A stretch of 64,000 bases of DNA. It comes from Escherichia phage JEP6. Where the stretch lies: the sequence record MT764206.1; one strand, written 5' to 3'. Under the pieces are notes generated by a model. The model searched no databases. It was not told where the DNA came from and was given only the letters and a program-made list of their open reading frames with translations. This document shows, in pieces, positions 5,736 through 61,129 of this stretch. Each line of letters begins with the position of its first letter. The stretch's first letter is position 1. A program made the position numbers and the translations under genes.

Positions 5736-5762
5736 TTCAATTTCCTCATTTGTTTTGGTAGA

Positions 5763-5797
5763 GCTATAATATCACAACTCTACCGTAAAGTAAACTA
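5763..5797 (-). promoter_or_regulatory. early promoter
   Basis: GTTTAC -35 and TATAAT-like -10. Confidence 0.5.
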
Positions 5798-11571: not shown

Positions 11572-12209
11572 TTAGAATCCTTAAATTTACATTTATCATA
11601 ATGCCATCTTAGAGCATTGCCTTTATTAACTTTCTTGCCACAATGCGGACAAGGCGGATACTCTATACTTTGCTTAGTTCTCAAAGAAATCAAATCACGA
11701 GTTTCTTTAGTATGAGGAACATCTCTTGTCGGAGAGATTGTACCATACATTGGATTAAGCACGCCGACTTTAGCAGCAGCTATATTCTTTTTAGCTTCTT
11801 CGGTTTTAGGTTTTCTCATGCGAGCTAAATGCTCTTTGGTAAATTTCCTTCCTTTAAGAGCTCTACTTATCTTTTCCCTGGTTTCTATAGAAACTTCACG
11901 TCCTATAGCAGCTTCAGATAAACGTCGTCTACCTAATTCGTATAGTTGAGAAGAAATTTTATATGAGCGATTTTTACCAGTCAAGCACATTAAACCAAAA
12001 GCTTTCTTTAATCCTGGGGTGTCATATATTTTGCATAAAAGCCAATGAGCTATAAAATGCTCTCTACCTGTTAATTCAACTAAATTTTCTTTATCATCAG
12101 AACCTCCCATGCATCTAGGGATTATATGATGAGTCTCTTTATATCCTAATAAAGGTTCCCGAGCCTGAGCTCGGGAAATTAGGTCGTTATAGATTTTTTG
12201 ATAATTCAT
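11568..12209 (-). CDS. mobE: HNH homing endonuclease, Mob family
   Basis: HHIIPRCMGGSDDKENLV HNH motif; position between nrdA and nrdB. Confidence 0.75.
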   Translation of the reverse strand: MNYQKIYNDLISRAQAREPLLGYKETHHIIPRCMGGSDDKENLVELTGREHFIAHWLLCKIYDTPGLKKAFGLMCLTGKNRSYKISSQLYELGRRRLSEAAIGREVSIETREKISRALKGRKFTKEHLARMRKPKTEEAKKNIAAAKVGVLNPMYGTISPTRDVPHTKETRDLISLRTKQSIEYPPCPHCGKKVNKGNALRWHYDKCKFKDSK

Positions 12210-17739: not shown

Positions 17740-17982
17740 TTAAACAGACTTTTTCACAATTTTCCAATCAGCTTTAAACTGCTCGACATCAGAATGGTAA
17801 ATCCAGAATCCTGCGCTTTCTCCATCCTCATAAAGAGGACATCCATCACATTCATCTTCCCATCCCATATCACGTAAAAGATGTTCAGCTTTTTCAACAA
17901 GTTCAGAATCTTTACCGATGATATTAAAATACCATTTACCTCTAACTTCTGAATCTTTGATGCTCTGGCGTTGTAATCTCAT
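17740..17982 (-). CDS. hypothetical protein
   Basis: 80-aa ORF downstream of early promoter. Confidence 0.5.
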   Translation of the reverse strand: MRLQRQSIKDSEVRGKWYFNIIGKDSELVEKAEHLLRDMGWEDECDGCPLYEDGESAGFWIYHSDVEQFKADWKIVKKSV

Positions 17983-18005
17983 TTTATTCTCCTCAGTAGT
18001 TGATA

Positions 18006-18042
18006 GGGTAATAGTATCACACTACTACCCTGCTGTAAACAA
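18006..18042 (-). promoter_or_regulatory. early promoter
   Basis: GTTTACA -35, TGATACTATTA -10 region. Confidence 0.5.
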
Positions 18043-18336
18043 TTATTTTTGAATTTTATCGAGCCACTTACCAAGCTTAATCATTTCTTTAGTAGCCTTT
18101 TCCATACTTCTGAACTTAACTAATAGAGGATAGGTATCGACACCCATAACTAAACTGGTTACAAGACTGTGTTCACCCACAAGCCATAACGAATACGTTT
18201 GAATATCGAGTCCGTAATTTCTGTCTTTATGGACCCGTACACCCATCACTTCAAATTTCTCACTAGCTTTTTCTACCGCATCCAGGAAATCATCTTTAGT
18301 CATATTAGGCCTTAAAAGTTTTTCGCAAAAGTTCAA
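18043..18336 (-). CDS. hypothetical protein
   Basis: 97-aa ORF. Confidence 0.5.
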   Translation of the reverse strand: MNFCEKLLRPNMTKDDFLDAVEKASEKFEVMGVRVHKDRNYGLDIQTYSLWLVGEHSLVTSLVMGVDTYPLLVKFRSMEKATKEMIKLGKWLDKIQK

Positions 18337-18737: not shown

Positions 18738-18965
18738 TTATTGTTCAATCAGTCCCATGTAAAATTCTGCGTCTTCAGAATCCATGCCATCGCAATATTC
18801 ATTAGCCATAAAGAGGGTGAGGTCTTCAAGAGGACCTTTAATAACGATTTGAATACTCCAAAACTTAGAATCTTGCACGCTTGTGATACTAAGTTCAGGA
18901 TAACGATTACGAATAATCTCTTCAATATATTCAAAATCAACGATGTCAATATCAACTTTAGCCAT
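18738..18965 (-). CDS. hypothetical protein
   Basis: ORF track 18738..19028; start moved to MAKVD because an early promoter occupies 19003..19040. Confidence 0.45.
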
Positions 18966-19002
18966 ATTATTTTCCTCTTTAATCATCAGCAGTATTGCCG
19001 AT

Positions 19003-19040
19003 AGTTGTATAGTACCATGGAAGGACAAGGATGTAAACAG
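19003..19040 (-). promoter_or_regulatory. early promoter immediately downstream of gene 32 terminator
   Basis: GTTTACA ... TGGTACTATACAA. Confidence 0.55.
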
Positions 19041-19063
19041 TTTTGTGAAAAAATTTTTGAAAT

Positions 19064-19088
19064 AAAAAAGGGGACCTCTAGGGTCCCC
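19064..19088 (-). terminator. rho-independent terminator after gene 32
   Basis: Hairpin GGGGACC-CTAGA-GGTCCCC then T6. Confidence 0.7.
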
Positions 19089-19110
19089 AATTAATTAGTA
19101 ATATAATCTA

Positions 19111-20016
19111 TTAAAGGTCATTCAAAAGGTCATCCAGGTCCGTGTCATCAGCACTAGATGAACTGCCAGAGCTTGAGCTCATAAAATCATCTTCAGTTTT
19201 TGTTTTGAAGTCATCAACATTGAATGCATCCAAATCATCAGCAACTTTATCAGCTTTCTTAGCGGCAGTCGCTGCGGCACCACCCATAGCAGCAGTTCCC
19301 ATAACTTGACTGAACTTAGTGCTCAGTTCTTCAAACGATTTGAATTTATCTTTAGAAGTCATTTCAGAAAGGTCAACCATTTGTTCGAACAGTTCTTTCT
19401 GGAAAGATTCATCATCAATGTTTGGAATCGCAGATTGATTCAGGAATTTAGATTCGTCGTAGTTACTAAAACCAGAAACTTGTTTAACTTTCAGTACAAA
19501 GTTAGCACCTTCCCACGGACAAGTTACATCAACCGGAGTTTCACCCATTTCAACATCAACTGCAATCATTGCATTGATTTTATCCCAGATTTTCTTACCG
19601 AAACGGTATTTAAATACTTTACCTTCATTTTCTGGAGCAGCTGGGTCTTTTACTACAAGAATGTTAGCCCAGTAAGAAGTTTTACGTTTAACAAGACCGT
19701 ACTCTTTATTGTCAGTGTTGTACAAATCATTTTTACTGATGTACTGACATACTGGACAAGAATCGTAATCACCGTGGGTAGATGAACATGTTTCAATATA
19801 CCATTTACCATTTTTCTTGAAACCGTGATTTACAAGAATTGCGAATGGTGCTTGTTCATCATTTTTAGACGGAAGAAAACGAATTACTGCTTGACCGTTA
19901 CCCGCATTATCGAGTTTCAGTTTCCACTCGCCTTTATCTTCAGAAGAAAAACCTTTATTGCCATTCAGTTTAGCCATTTGTGCAGCAAGTTCAGCAGTAG
20001 ATTTACGTTTAAACAT
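19111..20016 (-). CDS. 32: single-stranded DNA-binding protein gp32
   Basis: 301 aa; recognised sequence incl. acidic Ser/Asp-rich C-terminus. Confidence 0.9.
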
Positions 20017-22391: not shown

Positions 22392-25300
22392 ATGGCCGAG
22401 ATTAAAAGAAAGTTCAGAGCAGAAGACGGTCTGGACGCAGGTGGCGATAAAATAATCAACGTAGCTTTAGCTGATCGTACCGTAGGAACTGACGGTGTTA
22501 ACGTTGATTACTTAATTCAAGAAAACACAGTTCAACAATATGATCCAACTCGTGGATATTTAAAAGATTTTGTAATCATTTATGATAACCGCTTTTGGGC
22601 TGCTATAAATGATATTCCAAAACCAGCAGGAGCTTTTAATAGCGTACGTTGGAGAGCATTACGTACTGATGCTAATTGGACAACTGTTTCATCAGGACCT
22701 TATCAATTAAAGTCAGGCGAATCAATTTCAGTTGATACTGCAGCTGGTAATGACATTACATTTACTTTACCATCTTCTCCAATTGATGGAGATACTATCG
22801 TTCTTCAAGATATTGGTGGAAAACCTGGTGTTAACCAAGTTTTAATTGTAGCTCCAGTGCAAAGTATTGTAAACTTTAGAGGTGAACAGGTACGTTCAGT
22901 ACTAATGACTCATCCAAAGTCACAGCTAGTTTTAATTTTTAGTAATCGTCTGTGGCAAATGTATGTCGCTGATTATAGTAGAGAAGCTGTAGTTGTAACG
23001 CCTGCGAGTCTCTATCAGGCGCAATCAAACGATTTTATCGTACGTAGATTTACTTCTGCTGCACCAATTAATGTTAAACTTCCAAGATTTGCTAATCATG
23101 GCGATATTATTAATTTCGTCGATTTAGATAAACTAAATCCGCTTTATCATACAATTGTTACTACATACGATGAAACGACTTCAATACAAGAAGTTGGAAC
23201 TCATTCCATTGAAGGCCGTACAACAATTGACGGTTTCTTGATGTTTGATGATAATGAGAAATTGTGGAGATTGTTTGACGGGGATAGTAAAGCGCGTTTA
23301 CGCATTATAACGACTAATTCTAATATTCGTCCAAATGAAGAAGTTATGGTATTTGGTGCGAATAACGGAACAGCTCAGACAATTGAACTTCAGCTTCCGA
23401 CTGATATTTCTGTTGGTGATACTGTCAAAATTTCCATGAATTACATGAGAAAAGGACAAACAGTTAAAATCAAAGCTGCCGGTGAAGATAAAATTGCTTC
23501 TTCAGTTCAATTGCTGCAATTCCCAAAACGCTCAGAATATCCACCTGAAGCTGAATGGGTGACTGTTCAAGAATTAGTTTTTAACGGCGAAACTAATTAT
23601 GTTCCAGTTTTACAGCTTGCTTATATAGAAGATTCTGATGGAAAATATTGGGTTGTACAGCAAAACGTTCCAACCGTAGAAAGAGTTGATTCTTTAAATG
23701 ATTCTACTAGAGCAAGATTAGGCGTAATTGCTTTAGCTACACAAGCTCAAGCTAATGTCGATTTAGAAAATTCTCCACAAAAAGAATTAGCAATTACTCC
23801 AGAAACGTTAGCTAATCGTACTGCTACAGAAACTCGTAGAGGTATTGCAAGAATAGCAACTACTGCTCAAGTGAATCAGAACACCACATTCTCTTTTGCT
23901 GATGATATTATCATCACTCCTAAAAAGCTGAATGAAAGAACTGCTACAGAAACTCGTAGAGGTGTTGCTGAAATTGCTACACAGCAAGAAACTAACGCAG
24001 GTACTGATGATACTACAATCATCACTCCTAAAAAGCTTCAAGCTCGTCAAGGTTCTGAGTCATTATCTGGTATTGTAACTTTTGTATCTACTGCAGGTGC
24101 TACTCCAGCTTCTAGCCGTGAATTAAATGGTACGAATGTTTATAATAAAAACACTAATAATTTAGTTGTTTCGCCTAAAGCACTGGATCAGTATAAAGCT
24201 ACTCCAACGCAACAAGGTGCAGTAATTTTAGCAGTTGAAAGTGAAGTAATTGCTGGACAAAGCCAAGAAGGATGGGCAAATGCGGTTGTAACGCCAGAAA
24301 CGTTACATAAAAAGACATCAACTGATGCAAGAATTGGTTTAATTGAAATTGCTACGCAAAGTGAAGTTAATACAGGAACTGATTATACTCGCGCAGTCAC
24401 TCCTAAAACTTTAAATGACCGTAGAGCAACTGAAAGTTTAAGTGGTATAGCTGAAATTGCTACGCAAGTTGAATTCGACGCAGGCGTCGACGATACTCGT
24501 ATCTCTACACCATTAAAAATTAAAACTAGATTTAACAGTACTGATCGTACTTCTGTTGTTGCTCTATCTGGATTAGTTGAATCAGGAACTCTCTGGGACC
24601 ATTATACCCTTAATATTCTTGAAGCAAATGAGACACAACGTGGTACACTTCGTGTGGCTACGCAAGTTGAAGCTGCTGCTGGAAAATTAGATAATGTTTT
24701 AATAACTCCTAAAAAGCTTTTAGGTACTAAATCTACTGAAGCACAAGAAGGTGTTATTAAAGTTGCAACTCAGTCTGAAACTGTGACTGGAACATCAGCA
24801 AATACTGCTGTATCTCCGAAAAATTTAAAATGGATCGTGCAGAGCGAACCTACTTGGGCAGCTACTACTGCAGTAAGAGGCTTTGTTAAAACTTCATCTG
24901 GTTCAATTACATTCGTTGGTAATGATACAGTCGGTTCTACCCAAGATTTAGAACTGTATGAGAAAAATAGCTATGCAGTATCACCATATGAATTAAACCG
25001 TGTATTAGCAAATTATTTGCCGTTAAAAGCAAAAGCTGTAGATAGTAATTTACTGGATGGTCTAGATTCATCTCAGTTCATTCGTAGGGATATTGCACAA
25101 ACGGTTAATGGTTCACTAACCTTAACCCAACAAACGAATCTGAGTGCCCCTCTTGTATCATCTAGTACTGGTGAATTTGGTGGTTCATTGGCTGCTAACT
25201 CAACATTTACCATCCGTAATACAGGAGCCCCGACCAGTATCGTTTTCGAAAAAGGTCCTGCATCTGGCGCAAACCCGGCACAGTCAATGAGTATTCGTGT

Positions 25301-26261
25301 ATGGGGTAACCAGTTTAGCGGTGGAAGTAATACAAATCGTTCGACCGTGTTTGAAGTTGGTGATGAAACATCTTATCACTTTTATTCTCAACGCGATAAA
25401 GATGGTAATATAGCATTTAGCATTAATGGTACTGTAATGCCAATAAATGTGAATGCTTTAGGTTCTTTGAATGCGAATGGCGTTGCAACATTCGGTAGTT
25501 CAGTTACTGCTAATGGCGAATTTATCAGTAAATCGTCGAATGCTTTTAGAGCAATAAATGGAAATTACGGATTCTTTATTCGTAACGCTGGTAATGACAC
25601 CTATTTTATGCTCACTGCAGCCGGTGACCAAACTGGTGGATTTAATGCATTACGTCCATTATCAATTAATAATCAGTCCGGTCAAGTAACGATTGGTGAA
25701 AACTTAATCATTGCCAAAGGTGCTACTATAAATTCAGGTGGTTTAACTGTTAACTCTAGAATTCGTTCTCAGGGTACTAAAACATCTGATTTATATACTC
25801 GTGCGCCAACATCTGATACTGTAGGATTCTGGTCAATCGATATTAATGATTCAGCCACTTATAACCAGTTCCCGGGTTATTTTGAAATGGTTGAAAAAAC
25901 TAATGAAGTGACTGGGCTTCCATACTTAGAACGTGGCGAAGAGGTTAAATCTCCTGGTACGTTGACTCAGTTTGGTAACACACTTGATTCGCTTTACCAA
26001 GATTGGATTACTTATCCAACGACCCCAGAAGCACGCACCACTCGCTGGACACGCACATGGCAGAAAACCAAAAACTCTTGGTCAAGTTTTGTTCAGGTAT
26101 TTGATGGGGGTAACCCTCCTCAGCCATCTGATATCGGTGCTTTACCATCTGATAATGCTATAATGGGGAATCTTACTATTCGTGATTTCTTACGAATTGG
26201 TAATGTTCGCATTATTCCTGACCCAGTGAATAAAACGGTTAAATTTGAATGGGTTGAATAA
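22392..26261 (+). CDS. 34: long tail fibre proximal subunit gp34
   Basis: 1289 aa; late promoter TATAAATA 35 bp upstream; internal repeated sequence modules. Confidence 0.9.
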   Translation: MAEIKRKFRAEDGLDAGGDKIINVALADRTVGTDGVNVDYLIQENTVQQYDPTRGYLKDFVIIYDNRFWAAINDIPKPAGAFNSVRWRALRTDANWTTVSSGPYQLKSGESISVDTAAGNDITFTLPSSPIDGDTIVLQDIGGKPGVNQVLIVAPVQSIVNFRGEQVRSVLMTHPKSQLVLIFSNRLWQMYVADYSREAVVVTPASLYQAQSNDFIVRRFTSAAPINVKLPRFANHGDIINFVDLDKLNPLYHTIVTTYDETTSIQEVGTHSIEGRTTIDGFLMFDDNEKLWRLFDGDSKARLRIITTNSNIRPNEEVMVFGANNGTAQTIELQLPTDISVGDTVKISMNYMRKGQTVKIKAAGEDKIASSVQLLQFPKRSEYPPEAEWVTVQELVFNGETNYVPVLQLAYIEDSDGKYWVVQQNVPTVERVDSLNDSTRARLGVIALATQAQANVDLENSPQKELAITPETLANRTATETRRGIARIATTAQVNQNTTFSFADDIIITPKKLNERTATETRRGVAEIATQQETNAGTDDTTIITPKKLQARQGSESLSGIVTFVSTAGATPASSRELNGTNVYNKNTNNLVVSPKALDQYKATPTQQGAVILAVESEVIAGQSQEGWANAVVTPETLHKKTSTDARIGLIEIATQSEVNTGTDYTRAVTPKTLNDRRATESLSGIAEIATQVEFDAGVDDTRISTPLKIKTRFNSTDRTSVVALSGLVESGTLWDHYTLNILEANETQRGTLRVATQVEAAAGKLDNVLITPKKLLGTKSTEAQEGVIKVATQSETVTGTSANTAVSPKNLKWIVQSEPTWAATTAVRGFVKTSSGSITFVGNDTVGSTQDLELYEKNSYAVSPYELNRVLANYLPLKAKAVDSNLLDGLDSSQFIRRDIAQTVNGSLTLTQQTNLSAPLVSSSTGEFGGSLAANSTFTIRNTGAPTSIVFEKGPASGANPAQSMSIRVWGNQFSGGSNTNRSTVFEVGDETSYHFYSQRDKDGNIAFSINGTVMPINVNALGSLNANGVATFGSSVTANGEFISKSSNAFRAINGNYGFFIRNAGNDTYFMLTAAGDQTGGFNALRPLSINNQSGQVTIGENLIIAKGATINSGGLTVNSRIRSQGTKTSDLYTRAPTSDTVGFWSIDINDSATYNQFPGYFEMVEKTNEVTGLPYLERGEEVKSPGTLTQFGNTLDSLYQDWITYPTTPEARTTRWTRTWQKTKNSWSSFVQVFDGGNPPQPSDIGALPSDNAIMGNLTIRDFLRIGNVRIIPDPVNKTVKFEWVE
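23790..24800 (+). repeat. in-frame tandem sequence modules inside gene 34
   Basis: Six or more imperfect repeats of ITPKKL/ETL...ATETRRG...IATQ...; coding, not a repeat array. Confidence 0.5.
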
Positions 26262-26269
26262 GAGGTATT

Positions 26270-27388
26270 ATGGAAAAATTTATGGCAGAGTTTGGACAAG
26301 GATATGTCCAAACGCCATTTTTATCGGAAAGCAATTCAGTAAGATATAAAATAAGTATAGCGGGTTCTTGCCCGCTTTCTACTGCAGAAGGACCATACGT
26401 TAAATTTCAGGATAATCCTGTCGGAAGTCAAACATTTAGCGCAGGACTTCATTTAAGAGTTTTTGACCCTTCTACAGGAGCATTAGTTGATAGTAAGTCA
26501 TATGCTTTTTCGACTTCAAATGATACTACATCAGCTGCTTTTGTTAGTTTCATGAATTCTTTTTCAAACAACAGACTTGTTGCTATATTAACTAGCGGAA
26601 AGGTTAATTTTCCTCCTGAGGTAGTATCTTGGCTAAGAGCCGCGGGAACGTCTGCTTTTCCATCTGATTCTGTATTGTCAAGATTTGACGTATCATATGC
26701 TGCTTTTTACACTTCTTCTAAAAGAGCTATTGCATTGGAACATGTTAAACTAAGTAATAGAAAAAGCACAGATGACTATCAAACTATTTTAGATGTTGTA
26801 TTTGATAGTTTAGAAGACGTTGGAGCTACAGGATTTCCTAAAAGAACATACGAAAGCGTTGAGCAATTTATGTCAGCGGTTGGTGGAACTAATAACGAAA
26901 TTGCACGTCTACCAACTTCATCCGCGATAAGTAAACTTTCTGACTACAATTTAATTCCTGGCGATGTTCTTTATCTTAAAGCACAACTATATGCTGATGA
27001 AGATTTACTTGCTCTTGGAACTACTAATATATCCATTAGATTTTATAATGAATCTGATGGATATATTTCTTCAACGCACGCTGAGTTTACTGGACAAGCT
27101 GGGTCATGGGAATTAAAGGAAGATTATGTAGTTATTCCAGAAAATGCAGTAGGATTTACGATATATGCACAAAGAACTGCTCAAGCTGGTCAAGGTGGCA
27201 TGAGGAATTTAAGTTTTTCTGAAGTATCAAGAAATGGCGGAATTTCAAAACCTGCAGAATTTGGCGTCAATGGTATTCGAGTTAATTATGTCTGTGAATC
27301 TGCTTCACCTCCGGATATAATGGTACTTCCTACACAAGCATCGTCTAAAACTGGTAAAGTGTTTGGGCAAGAATTTAGAGAAGTATAA
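26270..27388 (+). CDS. 35: long tail fibre hinge protein gp35
   Basis: 372 aa. Confidence 0.85.
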   Translation: MEKFMAEFGQGYVQTPFLSESNSVRYKISIAGSCPLSTAEGPYVKFQDNPVGSQTFSAGLHLRVFDPSTGALVDSKSYAFSTSNDTTSAAFVSFMNSFSNNRLVAILTSGKVNFPPEVVSWLRAAGTSAFPSDSVLSRFDVSYAAFYTSSKRAIALEHVKLSNRKSTDDYQTILDVVFDSLEDVGATGFPKRTYESVEQFMSAVGGTNNEIARLPTSSAISKLSDYNLIPGDVLYLKAQLYADEDLLALGTTNISIRFYNESDGYISSTHAEFTGQAGSWELKEDYVVIPENAVGFTIYAQRTAQAGQGGMRNLSFSEVSRNGGISKPAEFGVNGIRVNYVCESASPPDIMVLPTQASSKTGKVFGQEFREV

Positions 27389-27393
27389 ATTGA

Positions 27394-27420
27394 GGGAGCC
27401 TTCGGGTTCCCTTTTTCTTT
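27394..27420 (+). terminator. rho-independent terminator after gene 35
   Basis: Hairpin GGGAGCC-TTCG-GGTTCCC then TTTTTCTTT. Confidence 0.65.
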
Positions 27421-27427
27421 ATAAATA
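27420..27427 (+). promoter_or_regulatory. late promoter TATAAATA for genes 36-37
   Basis: Exact TATAAATA 24 bp upstream of gene 36 ATG. Confidence 0.7.
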
Positions 27428-27450
27428 CTATTAAAATAAAGGGGCATACA

Positions 27451-28128
27451 ATGGCTGATTTAAAAGTAGGTTCAACAACCGGAGGCTCTGTCATTTGGCA
27501 TCAAGGAAATTTTCCATTGAATCCAGCCGGTGACGATGTACTCTATAAATCATTTAAAATATATTCAGAATATAATAAACCACAAGCTGCTGATAACGAT
27601 TTCGTTTCTAAAGCTAATGGTGGCACATATTTAAACAAAGTATCATTTAATGCAGGTGTACAAATCCCGTTTTCTAAAGACGGCGTAATTCAAACAGGGA
27701 ACATTAATGGTATTTTTCCCGGAGTTGATGATGGGGCCGATTTTACAGCAAACAACCTAGATATCGTTTCTTGGTATGGTGTTGGATTTAAATCTTCATT
27801 AGGTAATTCAGGATATACGATATCCATTAATACTCGTACAGGCACAATTAATACTAAAGGCGGTGTTTACGCCTCTGGACAAGTTCGTTCAGACATGGCT
27901 GCACCTGTTGCGGTTAACGATCTTACTCGTAAAGATTATGTTGATGGAGCAATAAATATTGTTACAGCAAACGCAAACTCTAGGGTATTACGCTCTGGAG
28001 ACACTATGACAGGAAATTTAACTGCGCCAAACCTTTTTTCACAGAATCCTGCATCTCAACCCTCGCATGTTCCACGATTTGACCAAATCGTAATTAAGGA
28101 TTCTGTTCAAGATTTCGGCTATTATTAA
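27451..28128 (+). CDS. 36: long tail fibre distal connector gp36
   Basis: 225 aa; own late promoter upstream. Confidence 0.85.
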   Translation: MADLKVGSTTGGSVIWHQGNFPLNPAGDDVLYKSFKIYSEYNKPQAADNDFVSKANGGTYLNKVSFNAGVQIPFSKDGVIQTGNINGIFPGVDDGADFTANNLDIVSWYGVGFKSSLGNSGYTISINTRTGTINTKGGVYASGQVRSDMAAPVAVNDLTRKDYVDGAINIVTANANSRVLRSGDTMTGNLTAPNLFSQNPASQPSHVPRFDQIVIKDSVQDFGYY

Positions 28129-28136
28129 GAGGACTT

Positions 28137-31100
28137 ATGGCTACTTTAAAACAAATACAATTTAAAAGAAGCAAAACTGCAGGAGCACGTCCTGCCGCTT
28201 CAGTATTAGCCGAAGGTGAATTGGCTATAAACTTAAAAGACCGTGTACTTTTTACTAAAGATGACCAGGGAAATATTATTGATTTAGGTTTTGCTAAAGG
28301 CGGTAGTATTGACGGGAATGTTATTCATACAGGCAATTATAACCAAACTGGCGATTATACTTTAAATGGCGTCTTCACTCAGACTGGTAATTTTAATTTA
28401 ACTGGTATTGCTCGAGTAACTCGTGATATTATTGCTGCTGGGCAGATTATGACTGAAGGCGGAGAACTTATTACAAAAAGTTCAGGAACGGCACACGTTC
28501 GTTTTCATGATTCCGCCGACCGTGAACGCGGTATTATTTTTTCTCCTGCTAATGACGGTTTAACTACACAAGTAGTTAACATCAGAGTTCAAGATTACAA
28601 AGCTGGTTCAGAAAGCACTTTCGCTTTTAATGGAAATGGTTTGTTTTCTTCACCAGAAGTTTTTGGGTGGAAATCTGTATCAACTCCGGTAATTTATACC
28701 AATAAAGTTATCACCAATAAAAAAGTTAAAGATGATTATGACATCTATTCGATGGCAGACAATGTTCCAATATCTGAAAGCACTACTGCTATTAATCATC
28801 TTCGTGTCATGCGTAATGCCGTTGGTTCTGCTGTTTTCCATGAAGTTAAAGATAGTGATGGAATAACTTGGTATACAGGTAACGGGTTAGATACCTATCT
28901 TTGGTCGTTTACCTGGTCCGGTGGATTGAAAGCCGGTCATTCTATTTCTGTAGGCGCCCCAGGCGGCCCCAAAGGATATTCTGAATTAGGAACGGCCTCA
29001 ATTGTTCTTGGGGATAATGACACCGGGTTAAAATGGCACCAGGACGGATATTATTTCAGCGTTAATAATGGAACAAAAACGTTTTTATTTAGTCCAAGCG
29101 AAACAACTAGTCTAAGAAAATTTGTAGCTGGATATTCTACTAACGGAAGCGATTTAACTACTCCTCCAACTGAAAATTATGCTCTTGCTACTGTAGTGAC
29201 ATACCATGATAATAACGCGTTTGGGGATGGTCAGACTCTTTTAGGATATTATCAAGGCGGTAACTATCATCATTATTTCCGCGGCAAAGGTACTACAAAC
29301 ATTAATACTCATGGCGGTTTGTTGGTTACTCCTGGTAATATTGACGTTATTGGTGGTTCTGTTAATATCGATGGTAGAAATAATGCTTCTACACTGATGT
29401 TTAGAGGTAACACAACAGGTAGTAGTTCTGTGGATAACATGACAATTTCTGTGTGGGGTAATACATTTACTAATCCTAGCGAAGGTAATCGCAAAAATGT
29501 CATGGAAATTTCCGATGCAACTAGCTGGATGAGCTATATTCAAAGACTTACTACCGGTGAAGTAGAAATGAACGTCAATGGTTCATTTGAATCATCGGGT
29601 GTTACTGCTGGAAATAGAGGAGTTCATACAACAGGCGAAATTTCATCTGGAGCGGTGAATGCGCTTCGCATTTGGAACGCAGATTATGGAGCCATTTTCC
29701 GTCGTTCAGAAAACAGTCTTCATATTATTCCGACTGCTTACGGTGAAGGCAAAAATGGCAATATCGGTCCACTTCGTCCGTTTAGCATGGCTTTAGATAC
29801 AGGTAAGGTCGTTATTCCTGATTTAGATTTAAGTTATGCTTCTTTTGCCGCAAATGGTTATATTAAATTCGGCGGTCATGGAGCTGGGGCTGGAGGTTAT
29901 GCCGTTCAATATGCTCAAGCGGCTCCTATTTTCCAGGAAATTGATGATGATGCTGTAAGCAAATATTATCCTATTGTTAAACAGAAATTCTTAAACGGTA
30001 AAGCAGTTTGGTCTTTAGGTACTGAAATTAATTCTGGTACATTCGTTATTCATCATCTGAAAGAAGATGGTTCACAAGGCCATACGTCTCGTTTTAATCA
30101 AGACGGTACTGTTAATTTCCCTGATAATGTTCAGGTTGGCGGTGGTGAAGCTACTATTGCTAGAAATGGTAATATTTTTTCTGATATTTGGAAATCGTTT
30201 ACTTCAGCAGGAGACACCACAAACATTCGCGATGCGATAGCTACTCGTGTTGCCAAAGAAGGCGATACGATGACTGGCAAATTAATCGTTAAAAGAGGCT
30301 CTGACGCTATTAACATTGCTGCCGATGAAAATGATTCTGCTTATTTACTTGGAACATCGGGTGGAGCGAATTCGTGGTACATCGGTAAAGGCGGGGCAGA
30401 TGACACTGCTTCATTTTATAATTTTAAGACTACGGCAGGAATTACTCTTAATAATGTAGGCGATATTGATTTTAATGTTAAAAATCAAGCTACTGCAGCT
30501 TCATTAAATTTTTATCGTTTATATTTAAACGGAAGACAGTGGACAGCTACCCAAGGCCACGGTTACGGAAACCAATGGCAAACAGAAGCCCCATTCTTCG
30601 TTGATTTTGGTGAATCTGTTCCAAAAGATAGTTATATGCCTATAATTAAAGGAAGAAGCCAAATCATTAATGAAGGATATGCAACAAAGGTAGATTTTGG
30701 TATTGTTCGATTAGGTGGAAATGCTGCTTGGGGAAATGCAGTAATTCGTGTTGGTTCTGCAGAAAGCGGAGATAGCCCTCATCCTAATGCAATATTTGAG
30801 TTTCAGGCTAATGGAGATTTTAAAGCTCCGGTTGGTCTTCGTGCTGGTGTTAACTTAGCTGTTGGTACTGATCCTATTTTTGGTGGACCTTCTATTGCCA
30901 TCGGTGATAATGACACTGGTTTAGTATGGGGTGGTGATGGTCGTATTAACATGCTTGCCGATGGTGTTCATATTGCGTCATGGGGGTCTCAACGTCTGGC
31001 ACATGAGGGGTTATGGGATTCATACGGGTCGTTTTGGACAGAAGTCGGTAAAGCGATTGTTTCACATGGCCATTTAGTCCAACAGGGTGATGCCTATTCT

Positions 31101-31463
31101 ACCTTTGTTCGTGATGTTTATGTCCGTTCTGATATTCGTGTTAAAAAAGACCTTGTTAAATTTGAAAATGCTTCTGAGAAGCTTTCTAAAATTAACGGTT
31201 ACACTTATATGCAGAAGCGAGGCCTAGATGAAGAAGGCAATCAGAAATGGGAACCTAACGCTGGTTTGATAGCTCAAGAAGTTCAAGCTATTTTGCCAGA
31301 ATTAGTTGAAGGTGACCCTGATGGTGAAGCTTTACTTCGTTTGAACTATAACGGTGTAATTGGTTTAAATACAGCTGCAATCAATGAGCATACTGCAGAA
31401 ATTGCAGAACTTAAATCAGAAATCGAAGAACTTAAAGCATTAGTTAAATCATTGTTAAAATAA
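28137..31463 (+). CDS. 37: long tail fibre distal subunit gp37 with C-terminal intramolecular-chaperone-like domain
   Basis: 1108 aa; C-terminal ~110 aa show SDIRVKKD...GLIAQEV...coiled-coil pattern typical of self-cleaving chaperone domains. Confidence 0.85.
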
Positions 31464-31494
31464 TAAGAGGGGCTTCGGCCCCTTGGAGGTTTAT

Positions 31495-32289
31495 ATGGCA
31501 GTAGCAGGACCGTGGATAGGAACTTCTGCATTGGCACAGACTGGAGACCATTGGATGGCAGGAGCAGCCGCAAGATTAAGAATGGGAGTTCCATTTTGGA
31601 TGAGTAATATGATAGGTCGATCCGTTGAAGTAATTCATACACTTGGAGCAGACCATAACTTTAATGGTCAATGGTTCCGAGATAGATGTTTTGAGGCAGG
31701 TAGTGCACCTATAGTGTTTAATATCACAGGAAATTTGGTATCATATTCTAGAGATGTTCCTTTATTCTTCATGTATGGAGATACACCAAATGAATATGTT
31801 CAGTTGAATATTAGCGGTGGAGCTCATATGTGGGGCAGAGGTGGACAAGGTGGATGGACTCATTCTGGTGGAGATGGTAATGGTCAACAGGGTGGACATT
31901 GTATTCAAAATGACATTGGTGGTCGATTAAGAATTAATAATGGTGGAGTAATTTGTGGCGGTGGTGGCGGTGGTGGCGGTATCGCTTATCGTCCTCACTC
32001 TGGCGCAAGGTGGCAAGATATTGGTGGCGGTGGAGGAAGACCATTTGGCCCAGGAGGAGGCGGAGGTTATTCCGGTGGCGCAGCTTCTTATGATGGCCCA
32101 GGAGGTGGTTATAATTATGGTAATGCTCACTCTGGCCAGGGTGGTGATGCTGGCGCAAATGGACAAAATGCCTGGCGTTATGGCGGTAAAGTTCTAAAAG
32201 TTGGAGCTGGTGGCGCTGCCGGATATGCTGTTATAGGATCAGCTCCAACATGGCAAAATGTTGGAGCAATATATGGTCCAAGAGTATAA
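31495..32289 (+). CDS. 38: gp38 receptor-recognising adhesin (glycine-rich, T2 type)
   Basis: 264 aa from ATG preceded by GGAGG (ORF track used upstream TTG); multiple poly-Gly stretches separating short variable segments. Confidence 0.75.
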
Positions 32290-32319
32290 TTTGAATAAAT
32301 ATCCTTAAAAGGAGGGTCT

Positions 32320-32976
32320 ATGGCAGCACCTAGAATATCATTTTCGCCCTCTGATATTCTGTTGGGTGTTCTAGATCGCTTGTTCAAAGATAACGCTACC
32401 GGGAAGGTTCTTGCTTCCCGAGTAGCTGTCGTAATTCTTTTATTTATGATGGCGATTGTTTGGTATAGGGGAGATAGTTTCTTTGAGTACTATAAGCAAT
32501 CAAAGTATGAAACATACAGTGAAATTATTGAAAAGGAAAGAAATGCACGCTTTGAATCTGTCGCCCTGGAACAACTCCAAATAGTTCATATATCATCTGA
32601 GGCAGACTTTAGTGCGGTGTATTCTTTCCGCCCTAAAAACTTAAACTATTTTGTTGATATTATAGCATACGAAGGAAAATTACCTTCAACAATAAATGAA
32701 AAATCACTTGGAGGATATCCTGTTGATAAAACTATGGATGAATATACAGTTCATTTAAATGGACGTCATTATTATTCCAATTCAAAATTTGCTTTTTTAC
32801 CAACTAAAAAGCCTACTCCCGAAATAAACTACATGTACAGTTGTCCATATTTCAATTTGGATAATATCTATGCTGGAACAATAACCATGTACTGGTATAG
32901 AAATGATCATATAAGTAATGACCGCCTTGAATCAATATGTGCTCAGGCGGCCAGAATATTAGGAAGGGCTAAATAA
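32320..32976 (+). CDS. t: holin
   Basis: 218 aa; single TM segment near N-terminus; recognised T4 T sequence. Confidence 0.85.
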   Translation: MAAPRISFSPSDILLGVLDRLFKDNATGKVLASRVAVVILLFMMAIVWYRGDSFFEYYKQSKYETYSEIIEKERNARFESVALEQLQIVHISSEADFSAVYSFRPKNLNYFVDIIAYEGKLPSTINEKSLGGYPVDKTMDEYTVHLNGRHYYSNSKFAFLPTKKPTPEINYMYSCPYFNLDNIYAGTITMYWYRNDHISNDRLESICAQAARILGRAK

Positions 32977-35704: not shown

Positions 35705-35739
35705 TTTCTAATCTCCGTAATTCTGTATCAGTAGTTGAT

Positions 35740-35776
35740 AGTTGTATAGTACCACAGTATGCTTTGGTTGTAAACC
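35740..35776 (-). promoter_or_regulatory. early promoter for motA
   Basis: GGTTTACA ... TGGTACTATACAA. Confidence 0.6.
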
Positions 35777-35796
35777 GTTTTGTGAAAAAATTTTAA

Positions 35797-35824
35797 AATA
35801 AAAAGGGAGAGCCGAGGCTCTCCC
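35797..35824 (-). terminator. rho-independent terminator
   Basis: Hairpin GGGAGAGCC-TCG-GCTCTCCC then T-run. Confidence 0.7.
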
Positions 35825-35829
35825 TAAAA

Positions 35830-37604: not shown

Positions 37605-37685
37605 TCACTGGCGTCCGAAGACGCCTTTGGTTTTAAGATTGTTACGATAGAACTGCATCACGTGTTCGTTGTGGAAATTACTCAT
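37605..37685 (-). CDS. stp: Stp 26-residue peptide
   Basis: Manual translation gives [26 protein letters not shown]; below ORF-track size cutoff; TAATG coupling to ndd. Confidence 0.8.
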
Positions 37686-38740: not shown

Positions 38741-38840
38741 AGTAAACGTTTAATACATCAATCATTAAAACGATTGGGAATATACTCAAAACTATTAGTA
38801 TTATAACTACATTCCATATAGCTTTAACAATCTTTTTCAT
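38727..38840 (-). CDS. small membrane protein
   Basis: ORF track 38727..38975; start moved to MKKIVKA (GGAGG upstream) because an early promoter lies at 38862..38897. Confidence 0.4.
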   Translation of the reverse strand: MKKIVKAIWNVVIILIVLSIFPIVLMIDVLNVYFGFM

Positions 38841-38861
38841 TTTCTGTTCCTCCGTAGTTGA

Positions 38862-38897
38862 TAGGATAATAATACCACAGAGGAACAGTCTTGTAAA
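38862..38897 (-). promoter_or_regulatory. early promoter
   Basis: GTTTACA ... TGGTATTATTAT. Confidence 0.5.
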
Positions 38898-39083
38898 CAA
38901 CTTTTTTAAAAATATTCGTAATAAATGTGAATACCAACTACTACCGCTGAAACCTGTGCAACCCACCACGCACAAGCAATAAGTACAGAATTCATAATTT
39001 TCATAATAACCTCATTACAAAAGTAAATGTTAAACAAATTACTGGAATACTAATTAACCAAACAAAACACCACCATAATGAAC

Positions 39084-39347
39084 TCATAGCTCAATCTCAA
39101 TGATTTCAAGATTATTTTCTTTAATAGCTTTCTTTAAATCATCGTAAATAAGAACTTCCCAAGAATTGTTTAAATCACCATTCAACAAACGCTCTTGTTG
39201 CAATTTATCAGTAAGATATGGTTGATCTGATTCATATTTAGACAATCCCAATGAAATAAATGATGTTGCATCATCAATTTCAGAATATTGTACATAAACA
39301 AATTCACCTGTGATTTTATGTTTAACATAAAAGAATTTAAATTTCAT
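39084..39347 (-). CDS. hypothetical protein
   Basis: 87-aa ORF with GGAGGA Shine-Dalgarno and early promoter upstream. Confidence 0.5.
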   Translation of the reverse strand: MKFKFFYVKHKITGEFVYVQYSEIDDATSFISLGLSKYESDQPYLTDKLQQERLLNGDLNNSWEVLIYDDLKKAIKENNLEIIEIEL

Positions 39348-39369
39348 TTTTACTCCTCCGTAGCTGATA

Positions 39370-39406
39370 GTTGTATAGTACCACAGTCCTTGTGGTATGT
39401 AAACTG
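39370..39406 (-). promoter_or_regulatory. early promoter
   Basis: GTTTACA ... TGGTACTATACAA. Confidence 0.55.
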
Positions 39407-39420
39407 TTTTGTGAAAATTT

Positions 39421-39978
39421 TTAAATGGAAAGATACCATCCGTTGTAGTTGCTTTTTCTTACAACCTTACGAAGGTCTTCTCTGTCACCGATGAACTTCG
39501 GAGTGTACTGGATGACACCTGGATGAATTTCTTTAGTGTTGAATATAATTATACAGTCAGCGACTTGATGATTTAGAATGGGCCCTAGATTTATTCCAGA
39601 ACCATATGGATACTCTCCGCTGCATCCGGTTGTTACCGAAATCCAACGTGAGTCAGTTTGATGTGTCTTAACTTCTACACGAAGCCCGCAGTATTTTGGA
39701 TGTGCTAAAACATCCCATGCATATGTGTACGGATCATCGACATCTTCTTGGCCTTTATTGACATATCCGCTTAGCCAATCTGCCACAAAAAACTCTGCGT
39801 ACACAGCGATACGGCATCTTTCGATAACTTCTGCTTTATCCTGGTTCGGGTTTTGTTTTAAAGAGTATCTTGCTGTATCAGCAATTTTGACCTTCATTTC
39901 ACTAGTCAAGTCACTGTTCGATAGGGTAAATGTCGGAATCTGAAATAGTCTCTGTAAACCTGGATTCGTTTTCTGCAT
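39421..39978 (-). CDS. denB: endonuclease IV
   Basis: 185 aa. Confidence 0.8.
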   Translation of the reverse strand: MQKTNPGLQRLFQIPTFTLSNSDLTSEMKVKIADTARYSLKQNPNQDKAEVIERCRIAVYAEFFVADWLSGYVNKGQEDVDDPYTYAWDVLAHPKYCGLRVEVKTHQTDSRWISVTTGCSGEYPYGSGINLGPILNHQVADCIIIFNTKEIHPGVIQYTPKFIGDREDLRKVVRKSNYNGWYLSI

Positions 39979-40240
39979 TTAGACTTTCCTTTTTACCACT
40001 AAGATAAGCGTTATATACTTTAAGAGTACCATAATAAATTCGATCATTTTCATCTAAAGAATTATGATCAAGTTCATCGAGATTCTTTTTATCCATGACT
40101 ATAATATCATTGCAGTAAAGAAACCCAAGTTTTTCGTGACCAAACTCAAATTTATTGCAGTACACAATATTAGCGTGATGATTTCCGTGCAGTTTAATCT
40201 CTTTTATGTCGGAATCACCGATATTCATACAATAAATCAT
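39911..40240 (-). CDS. hypothetical protein
   Basis: 109-aa ORF; 68-nt overlap with denB start. Confidence 0.45.
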   Translation of the reverse strand: MIYCMNIGDSDIKEIKLHGNHHANIVYCNKFEFGHEKLGFLYCNDIIVMDKKNLDELDHNSLDENDRIYYGTLKVYNAYLSGKKESLNAENESRFTETISDSDIYPIEQ

Positions 40241-40258
40241 AATTTTTCCTTAAAACAA

Positions 40259-40282
40259 AAGGGCCGAAGCCCTTTATTTTAC
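40259..40282 (-). terminator. hairpin with T-runs on both strands (possible bidirectional terminator)
   Basis: GGGCCGAAGCCC flanked by A-run and T-run. Confidence 0.4.
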
Positions 40283-40473
40283 TTGAATTGTGCAATTCTT
40301 TTCTCTAGACATTCAGCATAAGATTTCATTGAGATGAACTGTGAAAGTAGAAGTTCTTGCTCAACTGCACTAACCGTTAGAAACTTTGTGCTTTCTAAAA
40401 ATTTGCTCAGTGCATTAATTTTGAGCATTAATTGATCGTATTCTTCTTTTACTCGTGCTTGATAACCTAACAT
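40279..40473 (-). CDS. hypothetical protein
   Basis: 64-aa ORF flanked by hairpins. Confidence 0.45.
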   Translation of the reverse strand: MLGYQARVKEEYDQLMLKINALSKFLESTKFLTVSAVEQELLLSQFISMKSYAECLEKRIAQFK

Positions 40474-40505
40474 AATTTTCCTTAATGTGATAAGGGCCGA
40501 AGCCC

Positions 40506-41444
40506 TTATTTAAATTGTTCAGTAACGTCTTCAACTACTTCGTATTGGCAGGTACGCATTTTAGCATCGTTGTAATCAATCGGAATTGATACTACATCAC
40601 GCGGATGTACTTTAACTTTTACAACTCGGCTGGTTGAACTGCCAAAGTGACGAATATAAGATTTAGAACACACATGCAGACCATGAGAACAAGTTTGTGT
40701 ATCATCGTCATTCACACGAGTACGTGGCATTTTAACTACTTTACCAGGACTATTATCAAAAGTATTTGAATGACAGTCAAAGTAATTGCTGCGAACTACT
40801 TTCCAAGCATAGAAGTAACCGTCTTCTGTAATTTCAATATCGTTTGCTACCAAGAAATCAAAGAGTCGAGATACCGCTTTTTGACTCGGGTTTTCCAACA
40901 GATTTTCCAAGAACGGAAAATAAAATTCAAAGTTTTCGCCTTTTTCCATCGAATCGAGAATACGATCAACTAAACCAGACCGCAATTCAATATTTTGATA
41001 GAACAAGCTTCCACCTTCAATTCGAACATCACCGGAAATATATTTTTCAACAGCGCGACGAACGTTAATTTTTTGTGCCGCTTCTTCCAATTTATCTGCA
41101 ACAAGCAGATTAAGAATTTCCTGGAAGTTTGAATGAGTATTAGGAGTTGCGTTATAAGTTACACCGTCAACAGTAATTGAAATGAATTTTTTAGATGCAT
41201 TCCAAATAATGTCAGATTTAGCAACTGGAGCAATAACTGCATCGCTATTAACTTTAACTGTAATATCACCGCTAATGGTAACTTTGGAACGCTCAGCTTC
41301 TTCAGCATTTTTCAAAACACGACGGATTGTGTCAACCGATACACCTTGCCAATCAGCCAATTCCTGTTGGGTATAATTACCACTTGAATACAGTTTAACA
41401 ATTTCAGCTTGTTCGTTTTTGGTCAGGCATTTAATGTTGTACAT
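40506..41444 (-). CDS. rIIB: rIIB membrane-associated protein
   Basis: 312 aa. Confidence 0.9.
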   Translation of the reverse strand: MYNIKCLTKNEQAEIVKLYSSGNYTQQELADWQGVSVDTIRRVLKNAEEAERSKVTISGDITVKVNSDAVIAPVAKSDIIWNASKKFISITVDGVTYNATPNTHSNFQEILNLLVADKLEEAAQKINVRRAVEKYISGDVRIEGGSLFYQNIELRSGLVDRILDSMEKGENFEFYFPFLENLLENPSQKAVSRLFDFLVANDIEITEDGYFYAWKVVRSNYFDCHSNTFDNSPGKVVKMPRTRVNDDDTQTCSHGLHVCSKSYIRHFGSSTSRVVKVKVHPRDVVSIPIDYNDAKMRTCQYEVVEDVTEQFK

Positions 41445-44434: not shown

Positions 44435-45233
44435 TATACACCTCGTAGAACTTTTCATCAGGAATCCAGCCGCGTTTAAATTCATTAAATGCTCGGCCGA
44501 ATAATTTTGAATTCACAGTTATATTATTAACTGATTTCCATTTAGCAACTCCCGTTCGTTTATAATGATCGGGGTCATATTTCGTGACGTACCATTCATA
44601 TAAATTTGGTATTAATTTTACAGCCTCTGGATTTGTCGCTGATTTATTATACCATGGTTTCGCTTTTTCAAGTTCAGCTGCTTTTGCAGTAGCAGCAACA
44701 GTATTTCCAATACCAACTAATTTTTCAGCTTTAATGCGTGGATCATTAACATGAAGACGAAAAACTTCGCCTTTTTCATTTTTAAAGCATGTCATGCCTT
44801 TAATTCCAGGAAGCTTAACACCTTTATTAACACCGCACCATTCCTTTGGGTTAAATGATCCTTTAATTAATAAGGCGCATTTACCCGATTTAATACTTCT
44901 CATTAAAACTTTATCTTTCATAAAGTTTTTTGACCATTCAGATACTGCTCTTTGATGGTAAATTCTAGCAATTTCATATAATTTACTAGAACGTAAATAT
45001 TTTTCAGTGTTTAACATTCTATTCATCGCATATGCCATTTCACGATTACGATGAATTTTATATAGTAGAAAATGTGCTAAAAAGTGTTCACGAAAAGTCA
45101 GTTTCACCAAATTTTCTTTATCATCAGAACCTCCCATTGATCTTGGAAGGATATGGTGAATTTCACCCTTAAATTTAGAAACGCGGGTTTTACCCCGCAC
45201 TATTAAGTCATTATAGATTTTTTCGTAATTCAC
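44415..45233 (-). CDS. mobA: HNH homing endonuclease, Mob family
   Basis: 272 aa; HHILPRSMGGSDDKENLV motif shared with mobE; wedged between genes 39 and 60 with short overlaps. Confidence 0.75.
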   Translation of the reverse strand: MNYEKIYNDLIVRGKTRVSKFKGEIHHILPRSMGGSDDKENLVKLTFREHFLAHFLLYKIHRNREMAYAMNRMLNTEKYLRSSKLYEIARIYHQRAVSEWSKNFMKDKVLMRSIKSGKCALLIKGSFNPKEWCGVNKGVKLPGIKGMTCFKNEKGEVFRLHVNDPRIKAEKLVGIGNTVAATAKAAELEKAKPWYNKSATNPEAVKLIPNLYEWYVTKYDPDHYKRTGVAKWKSVNNITVNSKLFGRAFNEFKRGWIPDEKFYEVYNEICKN

Positions 45234-47901: not shown

Positions 47902-48072
47902 TACAATTTCCTCATTAATTAAACATTGGAGCGATGCGTTTCAGAAGAGTATCAGCACCTTTGGCGAATTTCCATTTTATTCTTCAAGTTGTTTTCTGTA
48001 TCAGTAGTTGATATTGATATAGTACCATAATCAACTACTGATGTATATAGTTTTATGAAAAAATTTTAAACT

Positions 48073-56770: not shown

Positions 56771-56792
56771 AGTGCTCTCCTCTATAAGATAA

Positions 56793-56826
56793 TTCTATTA
56801 TACCATACTCATTTTGATATGTAAAC
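56793..56826 (-). promoter_or_regulatory. early promoter immediately downstream of soc terminator
   Basis: GTTTACA ... TGGTATAATAG. Confidence 0.5.
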
Positions 56827-56834
56827 CATAAAAT

Positions 56835-56858
56835 GAAAAAAGGACTCCCGAAGGAGTC
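56835..56858 (-). terminator. rho-independent terminator after soc
   Basis: Same GGACTCC-TTCG-GGAGTCC hairpin as at 2287-2304, followed by T6. Confidence 0.7.
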
Positions 56859-56867
56859 CTTGAATTA

Positions 56868-57104
56868 TTAACCACCTATTTCTGTAGGTGTAAACATTGC
56901 AGCATTCTTAGTTTTCCAAGTTGCTGCATCGGAAACTACAGTAGAATATGCCGCCTTTTCAGAAGGAAAGGTCTGATAATGAGAATCTGCAATACGGTGT
57001 TCATTTGAATATACATCAAATGCTACAGAAACTTCCATACCTTTAACTTCTTTGCCTTCACCTGCTGGATGAGTAAAGGTCTTGATGTTAACGAAACCAC
57101 CCAT
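56868..57104 (-). CDS. soc: small outer capsid protein Soc
   Basis: 78 aa; HYQTFPSEKAAYSTV segment recognised; late promoter upstream. Confidence 0.75.
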   Translation of the reverse strand: MGGFVNIKTFTHPAGEGKEVKGMEVSVAFDVYSNEHRIADSHYQTFPSEKAAYSTVVSDAATWKTKNAAMFTPTEIGG

Positions 57105-61068: not shown

Positions 61069-61129
61069 GATTAATCTCCTCAGTAGTTTATGTTTATATA
61101 GTATCTCAATTTCCAATAAAAGTAAACAG

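Follow-up and report, generated by a model that had tools for sequence, protein, structure and literature searches.

Between gene 32 and frd.3 of Escherichia phage JEP6 (record MT764206.1), a short intergenic segment at positions 19003-19090 looks like a hairpin terminator followed by an A/T-rich spacer and a promoter, and similar combinations recur elsewhere in the 64,000-nucleotide stretch of DNA that was analyzed here (the window). A sequence-only reading had listed five intervals as copies of one near-identical module and had noted that such cassettes have been described as possible recombination hot spots. This raises the questions of what the segment would do in the transcription of the phage, how closely its copies are related, and whether they are preferred sites of genetic exchange.

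The 4-kb stretch around 19003-19090 matches many Tequatrovirus (T4-like) genomes at 97-99%, and the gene names of the window, whose base composition is 35.6% G+C, were transferred from the annotations of RB51, T4, PST, and T6. A first block of minus-strand genes comprises the gene 30.x region, 31, cd, pseT, nrdAB, td, frd, 32, 59, 33, and rnh; the plus strand carries the late tail-fibre genes 34-38 and t at 22392-32976; and a second minus-strand block begins with asiA, motA, 52, ndd, denB, rIIB, rIIA, and 39 and ends with dexA, dda, modAB, soc, 56, 61, and 41. Because the early genes are minus-strand genes, the segment at 19003-19090 and the other cassettes have to be read on that strand, as is done below.

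Architecture of the gene 32/frd.3 cassette

The cassette is bounded upstream by the stop codon of gene 32 (19111-19113). The predicted gene 32 terminator hairpin, GGGGACC-CUAGA-GGUCCCC (19070-19088), lies 22 nt past this stop codon, and its U-run TTTTTTATTT (19060-19069) continues into the A/T-rich, UP-like sequence AAAAATTTTTTCACAAAACT, the span being 19039-19069. The −35 element GTTTAC of the putative frd.3 early promoter (19033-19038) equals the T4 early −35 consensus and is followed by the extended −10 element TGgTACTAT (TGGTACTAT) at 19009-19017; from this spacing, the start of transcription is predicted near 19002. The Shine-Dalgarno sequence GAGG and the ATG of frd.3 lie within 18963-18977 (ATG at 18965), and the coding sequence of frd.3, the gene downstream of the 19038 promoter, occupies 18738-18965. 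The T4 cassette has the same sequence with an identical hairpin, the differences being confined to the −35/−10 spacer, and the 32/frd.3 junction is unbroken in 495 records of a wider collection. We also considered whether the frd.3 spacer of T4 is a gene conversion from the motA promoter, for which the alignment gives no support.

Other cassettes and additional early promoters

Three other cassettes have a comparable arrangement on the minus strand. Between 30.9 (stop codon at 2310) and 30.8, at 2215-2306, a hairpin with a UUCG loop (2285-2306) and a U-run precede a −35 element at 2251-2256 and a −10 element at 2227-2232. The cassette between motA.1 and motA (35735-35825), the reference copy of repeat family D1, consists of a hairpin (35804-35825), a U-run, an UP region, a −35 element (35770-35775), and a −10 element (35746-35751). 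Between soc (stop codon at 56868) and mrh.2, at 56785-56861, the hairpin occupies 56840-56861, the −35 element 56821-56826, and the −10 element TATAAT 56797-56802. At the fifth site, a minus-strand promoter without a terminator (39363-39420; −35 at 39399-39404, −10 at 39375-39380) is located directly 3′ of the denB stop codon (39421-39423) and upstream of an ORF268-like gene (39084-39347), which it would drive. Folding of 39370-39430 gave no GC-rich hairpin, the upstream sequence being the 3′ end of denB with weak stems only. Thus, the proposal that all five intervals hold a terminator and a promoter is correct for the promoter at each of them, whereas the terminator is found at only four, the 39404 site being without one.

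About 17 promoter copies, four of them with stem-loops, are distributed across the 53-kb early region, about 11 to 12 of these minus-strand promoters being additional to the five listed. Three of the four stem-loop cassettes sit after known genes (32, soc, and motA.1/52). A promoter with its leader after the motB stop codon (47994-48070, minus strand) is a D1 member (79%) with a degenerate −35 element, TATATACA; this copy and about 11 further early promoters without terminators had been overlooked by the sequence-only reading. The minus-strand promoters of frd.1 (17979-18049; reference copy of family D2) and of the cd.3/ORF213-like gene junction (5755-5797; family D4 of the repeat search) likewise have no terminator, and the T4 record AF158101 carries the note Pe133295 at the ortholog of the latter (the 5795 copy).

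A single class of early promoter

A generic sigma-70 scan did not discriminate between the window (75 sites) and its shuffles (75.6 sites), and we therefore adopted a T4-specific promoter pattern. In the 64-kb window, exact GTTTAC-N18-TAnnAT is present at 18 sites on the minus strand and at none on the plus strand, with about 16 of the 18 at gene junctions, and it occurs at all five listed sites (2256, 19038, 35775, 39404, and 56826). The anatomy of these sites is an A/T-rich UP region, a GTTTAC −35 element, a spacer of about 17 bp, and a TGn-extended −10 element, in which TG precedes the −10 at 19038, 35775, 39404, and 56826 and TGTGA does so at 2256. The consensus of 15 promoters of the window, aaaaa.tttt.A.a.AattGTTTACat...tgTGgTAttAT (its UP side with the −35 element being aaaaa.tttt.A.a.AattGTTTAC), agrees with the published T4 early consensus, in which a UP-like region rich in A precedes GTTTAC at −36 to −31 and the extended −10 is GT-rich (PMC1524935); Hinton used the name 'UP/−35/TGn/−10' for this promoter type (PMC2988021). 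A search of the window against Rfam at gathering thresholds gave no match.

When the whole window was searched for repeats without bias, the promoter modules came out as the top dispersed repeat families. Family D1 (77 nt) has four copies, at 18984-19060, 35721-35797, 39350-39426, and 47994-48070, with 66-79% identity, and family D2 (71 nt) also has four, at 17979-18049, 38837-38907, 39343-39413, and 61066-61136; family D18 is the shared hairpin pair. In-register comparison gave 60-80% identity for the UP zone among 19038, 35775, and 39404 and also a similarity of the zone from +1 to +20 among the D1 copies, whereas the −35/−10 spacers of the D1 copies are 21-43% identical, which is the random level. 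The description as near-identical is consequently overstated even for the best three copies (66-79% over the 77 nt). The quoted spacer GTTTTGTGAAAAAATTTT and −10 motif TGGTACTATACAACTATC are common to 19038, 35775, and 39404 only (0-0.04 expected from shuffles), with a degenerate fourth copy at 48066, and do not occur at 2256 and 56826; these two sites have the hairpin in common and differ in the UP region and the −10 flank. The accurate description is one promoter class, two promoter-plus-leader subfamilies, four terminators, and one shared hairpin pair.

Terminator hairpins

With our own terminator scan, exactly four sites with a strong hairpin and a T-run were found on the early strand (shuffles give 0-1), namely, 2306-2285 (ΔG of −15.4 kcal/mol), 19088-19070 (−14.4 kcal/mol), 35825-35804 (−18.6 kcal/mol), and 56861-56840 (−15.1 kcal/mol). 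It is precisely these hairpins that have a T-run of at least 6 T in 8 nt, and all four come just after stop codons and precede GTTTAC by 14-32 nt. They are built from a GC-rich stem of 7-9 bp, a loop of 4-5 nt, which is UUCG in two copies, and a U-run that adjoins the stem on its 3′ side, and the distance from the stem end to the −35 element is 28-31 nt in three cassettes and 13 nt in the soc cassette. Prentki and Krisch reportedly used the terminator of T4 gene 32 in the Omega interposon in 1984. The hairpin at 56840-56861 shares its stem-loop with that at 2285-2306, and the 25-nt sequence AGGACTCCTTCGGGAGTCCTTTTTT is identical at 2281-2305 and 56836-56860 (chance expectation, 0), so the suggestion that two copies carry the same hairpin (at 2287 and 56841) was right.

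The window also has several similar hairpins between genes, with UUCG or GNRA loops in the minus-strand reading and with neither a U-run nor a promoter downstream (1397-1419, 37610-37625, 40259-40274, 40491-40506, and 57227-57242). A 37-nt module (D19; 78% identity) occurs on the minus strand after rIIB and after denB.1, at 40238-40274 and 40471-40507; it contains the hairpin AAGGGCTTCGGCCCTT and then AAGGAAAATTATG, with an RBS and a start, and has no T-run and no promoter.

Two hairpins of relatives differ from those of the window by their orientation. The gene 32 hairpin of PST is an exact inversion of 19070-19088 (loop TCTAG versus CTAGA), and the motA.1 hairpin of T4 is an exact inversion of 35804-35825 (loop CGAG versus CTCG). 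In each case, the relative has the reverse complement of the entire hairpin, which suggests template-switch inversion at perfect inverted repeats.

Conservation among relatives

The five listed sites have orthologous intergenic regions in T4 (30.9/30.8, 32/frd.3, motA.1/motA, denB/ndd, and soc/mrh.2), and the orthologous cassettes of T4, PST, RB51, and T6 have 91-99% identity. In the T4 record X54536, the 2256 copy's ortholog is annotated with early-promoter −35/−10 signals, and gene 31 with middle and late promoters. Apart from one note, the T4 genome record AF158101 has no promoter features, and a literature search for TSS or Term-seq maps turned up none for T4. In the soc hairpin of RB51, a compensatory C>A/G>T pair change preserves the stem. 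The T4 orthology, the X54536 annotation, and the match to the published consensus all agree with the earlier identification of these sequences as terminator and early-promoter cassettes.

A conserved terminator downstream of gene 32 has been predicted in five of six T4-like genomes (Nolan et al., PMC1524935). We surveyed 26 T4-like loci of the enterobacterial group, located through gp32 (at 58-100% identity). A hairpin with a T-run is located 3-23 nt past the gene 32 stop codon in 25 of the 26 loci, with 16 distinct stems, and a TTTAC[AT]-N16-17 −10 promoter follows within 120 nt downstream of gene 32, likewise in 25 of the 26; five of the promoter loci (L026, L030, L033, L034, and L037) have no TGn extension. 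The covariation among these hairpins is partly circular, since a hairpin finder was used to choose them, and the real evidence is their recurrence at one position. Marine relatives retain the gene 32 terminator without a TTTAC-type promoter. In Mosigvirus, a terminator and then a GTTTAC promoter, with different sequences, come after 30.9 and after soc. The predicted architecture after genes 32, 30.9, and soc thus persists across genera with different hairpin sequences.

Several single records are worth mentioning. In the T4-like IMGVR_UViG_2974787500_000001 (2340-2520), a deletion of about 69 nt takes the last gene 32 codons and the whole terminator and leaves the UP region and the frd.3 promoter intact. 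Gene 30.9 (2322-2604) is 94-95% identical in the Mosigvirus phages G2285 and ATK48, whose genomes are otherwise at about 70%; this homology stops some 12 nt short of the stop codon, beyond which the terminator and the promoter are different ones. PBM-1 (121 kb) and EC.W2-1 (46 kb) were considered as carriers of the cassette in other families. They are actually partial Tequatrovirus records and therefore indicate no transfer to unrelated phages.

Breakpoints, modules, and diverged alleles

It has indeed been described that cassettes of this kind are possible recombination hot spots in T4-type phages (PMC2839356, PMC4122927). In a comparison with four genomes (T4, PST, RB51, and T6), which has low power, indel breakpoints were found at 3 of 15 promoter junctions and 25 of 93 other gene junctions (p = 0.76), and none of them lay inside the four terminator-plus-promoter cassettes. 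When divergence transitions called by a two-state HMM were combined with the indels, 8 of the 17 promoter windows were hit, compared with 32 of the 91 windows at other junctions (OR of 1.6, p = 0.42). The breakpoint densities were 4.1 per kb at promoters and 3.6 per kb at other junctions, compared with 1.8 per kb within genes; gene boundaries are generally favoured, with no special preference for promoters.

We also read the junctions of four indels near promoters (5733, 17996, 39357, and 47969) as candidate promoter-by-promoter exchanges. Three of them are ORF-internal deletions or RBS-level events and were therefore rejected. T4 keeps a 9-codon remnant of ORF268, and the window keeps a 19-codon remnant of RB51ncORF009c (47917-47975) upstream of cef. 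ORF213 is placed exactly between the RBS and the cd.2 ATG, and T4 has an unannotated hydrophobic mini-ORF of 22 codons between the frd.1 promoter and frd.1 (about 19520-19600 of the T4 locus), the flanks of which are repeated RBS sequences and not promoters.

In about 138 of about 480 Tequatrovirus records (~29%), a 345-bp module that is nearly identical among its carriers is inserted just after the −10/+1 region of the motA promoter. It consists of a 75-amino-acid ORF and a second GTTTAC promoter, and on either side of it lies a copy of a 36-nt direct repeat (92% identity) spanning the promoter and leader from −10 to +24. In phage HP3.2, for example, it is found at 596-976, and the insertion point corresponds to about 35732-35754 of the window; the module is absent from the window, T4, PST, RB51, and T6. 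This is a clear polymorphism of the PeSL (promoter-early stem-loop) type at a listed site.

At the soc and ORF268 loci, the cassettes are conserved islands beside strongly diverged alleles. The soc and ORF268 alleles are about 70-80% identical to those of relatives and the adjoining cassettes 96-100%, with an abrupt switch at the cassette edge. Compared genome by genome, the soc gene (56868-57104) has about 70-84% identity to those of T4, PST, RB51, and T6 and about 83% to that of Mosigvirus JS09; the soc-flanking cassette and mrh.2 are 92-100% identical to those of T4, PST, and T6, and the divergence ends at the soc stop codon. At the ndd/39404 locus, an association with indels or replacements between close relatives was observed. 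The T6 record AP018814 annotates an 'attR' (40090-40129 of the T6 locus) exactly at the ortholog of the 39404 promoter, which probably reflects a false call of a prophage finder at the repeated promoter sequence. Nearby, a 195-nt segment in the denB.1/denB region (39993-40187) is absent from T4, PST, and RB51 and present in T6, and the flanks of the relatives overlap by 19 nt.

T4 recombination uses microhomologies of 6-10 bp anywhere in the genome (PMC9391042), and the cassettes are therefore sufficient but not required substrates. Taken together, the hot-spot idea is partly supported: the 345-bp module at motA is one good example, but the four-genome comparison gives no statistical excess at promoter junctions.

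Discussion

We suggest, with a probability of about 0.9, that the cassettes punctuate transcription on the minus strand, the early strand of this T4-type phage. The upstream unit, which is 30.9, gene 32, motA.1/52, or soc, would end at an intrinsic terminator made of a GC-rich hairpin (often with a C(UUCG)G tetraloop) and a U-run. The T-run of this terminator would pass without a gap into the A/T-rich UP region belonging to a very strong early promoter of the sigma-70 type, from which the unmodified host RNA polymerase would restart transcription of 30.8, frd.3, motA, or mrh.2 right after infection. Initiation and termination at the cassettes are predicted here from sequence and from the T4 literature. 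Given that the stem ends 28-31 nt before the −35 element in three cassettes, the T-run would be located at roughly −50 to −60, the position of the distal UP subsite, and it is probably part of the UP element and serves both signals. In T4, middle or late promoters also serve gene 32, soc, and the 31/rIII/30.9 group.

The copies would be alike because they are selected for the same polymerase contacts, which would fit the conserved contact elements and the unrelated −35/−10 spacers. However, the likeness of the leaders (+1 to +25) is not accounted for by polymerase contacts alone, and in two subfamilies (71-77 nt) the likeness reaches the transcribed leader, which suggests that these copies descend from one another or have undergone gene conversion. 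As direct repeats of 18-36 nt, the cassettes can also feed T4 recombination and at times do so.

The resemblance might instead be one of generic A/T richness or chance, the alternative that the sequence-only reading had itself named, since the window is A/T rich and the generic sigma-70 scan stays at the level of shuffled sequence. This explanation is refuted by the shuffles, in which 0-0.04 occurrences are expected for specific motifs observed 2-4 times, and by the complete strand asymmetry (18 versus 0); the order and spacing of the motifs are also fixed, and we give it practically no weight. It is also rather improbable that the hairpins are mainly stabilisers of RNA 3′ ends, processing barriers, or translational elements to which a promoter is adjacent only incidentally. 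The five similar intergenic hairpins of the window that have no U-run and no promoter downstream would fit such roles, and UUCG hairpins were reportedly first noted by Tuerk and colleagues in 1988, as RNA structures of unusual stability between T4 cistrons. However, exactly the four cassette hairpins combine a T-run with a location after stop codons and before promoters, and the one after gene 32 agrees with the terminator predicted in five of six T4-like genomes (PMC1524935); moreover, stabilising and terminating roles can coexist.

A stronger proposal is that the cassettes are mobile or recombinogenic true hot spots and that recombination between copies is a main driver of ORF gain, loss, and exchange in this genome. 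PeSLs have been described in PST and T4, including the ndd locus beside the 39404 promoter (PMC4122927), and mini-circles have been shown for RB49/phi1 (PMC2839356). The motA module with its 36-nt flanking repeat in about 138 of about 480 records, the abrupt change of the diverged soc and ORF268 alleles at the cassette edge, and the leaders that the D1 and D2 families have in common besides their promoters are in agreement with this proposal. On the other hand, promoter junctions were not hit more often than other junctions by indels (3/15 versus 25/93) or by indels and transitions combined (8/17 versus 32/91), and the 32/frd.3 junction is intact in 495 records. The indels beside the 39404 and 48066 promoters are ORF-internal deletions that left the 9- and 19-codon remnants, ORF213 and the T4 frd.1 mini-ORF are bounded by RBS or start sequences and not by promoters, and T4 can recombine at microhomologies of 6-10 bp anywhere (PMC9391042). 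We therefore consider it doubtful that inter-copy recombination has this leading role, and we retain transcriptional punctuation as the main function of the cassettes.

A joint reading, which we put forward only tentatively and would not expect to hold in full, is that the cassettes evolve in concert and act as landing pads. Gene conversion would then spread or homogenise the promoter-plus-leader subfamilies of 71-77 nt, ORF modules with a promoter of their own would integrate by exchange within the 36-nt −10/leader segment, as at motA, and terminator hairpins would invert as a whole by template switching, as in PST gene 32 and T4 motA.1. If this is true, the PeSL model could be extended, since the segment of exchange would be defined and its frequency in the population known.

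None of this is new in kind: publications on T4 and its relatives already contain the elements, their consensus, and the hypothesis of recombination, and they name the cassettes PeSLs. For the T4 early promoters (Pe), PMC1524935, PMC2988021, and PMC9391042 cite Liebig and Rueger (1989) and Miller et al. (2003). The promoters of the window are like them in having GTTTAC at −36 to −31, an A-rich or UP region from −40 upstream, a TGn −10 element, and conserved bases around +1, and also in their location upstream of early genes on the counter-clockwise strand, at 32/frd.3, motA, 30.8, mrh.2, and the ndd region. Nothing essential differs from T4 Pe, there being only point changes such as those in the −35/−10 spacer of the frd.3 promoter.

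Arbiol et al. (2010, PMC2839356) defined PeSLs for RB49/phi1, and Comeau et al. (2014, PMC4122927) added those of PST/T4, whose consensus is TTTACW-N17-TAYWAT. The window promoters fit this consensus; four of the five listed sites have the stem-loop terminator, AT-rich region, sigma-70-like early promoter, Shine-Dalgarno sequence, and start codon in an intergenic position; and the motA cassette bounds an ORF-module polymorphism. However, the stem-loop of RB49/phi1 PeSLs is often inside the promoter or overlaps it, and there are about 50 copies per genome, whereas in the window a hairpin accompanies only 4 of about 17 early promoters and in each case precedes the UP region. A further difference from the PeSL model is that, in the four-genome comparison, the window has no excess of breakpoints over other gene junctions. 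The hairpins resemble intrinsic C(UUCG)G terminators, including that of T4 gene 32, in their GC-rich stem, U-run, and location just after a stop codon, but the U-run of the window would double as the distal part of the A/T-rich region of the next promoter. By bringing its own promoter, the 345-bp motA module is similar to the lambdoid 'morons', in which a promoter, an ORF, and a terminator are inserted between genes; unlike morons, ORF modules of T4-type phages match the G+C content of the genome and have no terminator of their own, a contrast that has also been drawn in PMC1524935.

The early transcription units of a T4-type phage could thus be recovered by sequence reading alone. The exact coordinates of the cassettes serve the annotation of this genome, the cassettes are useful parts, as strong promoters and compact terminators, and they mark spots where relatives gain or lose accessory ORF modules.

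Other repeats were also present in the window. A 110-nt direct repeat (D5; 74%) at 12028-12137 and 45055-45164 falls in two ORFs in homing-endonuclease positions, one at the nrdB/nrdA junction and the other in the gene 60/39 insertion. Within gene 34, which encodes the proximal tail fibre, there are direct repeats 68 nt and 33 nt long (23793-24463 and 23897-24718; D3 and D8).
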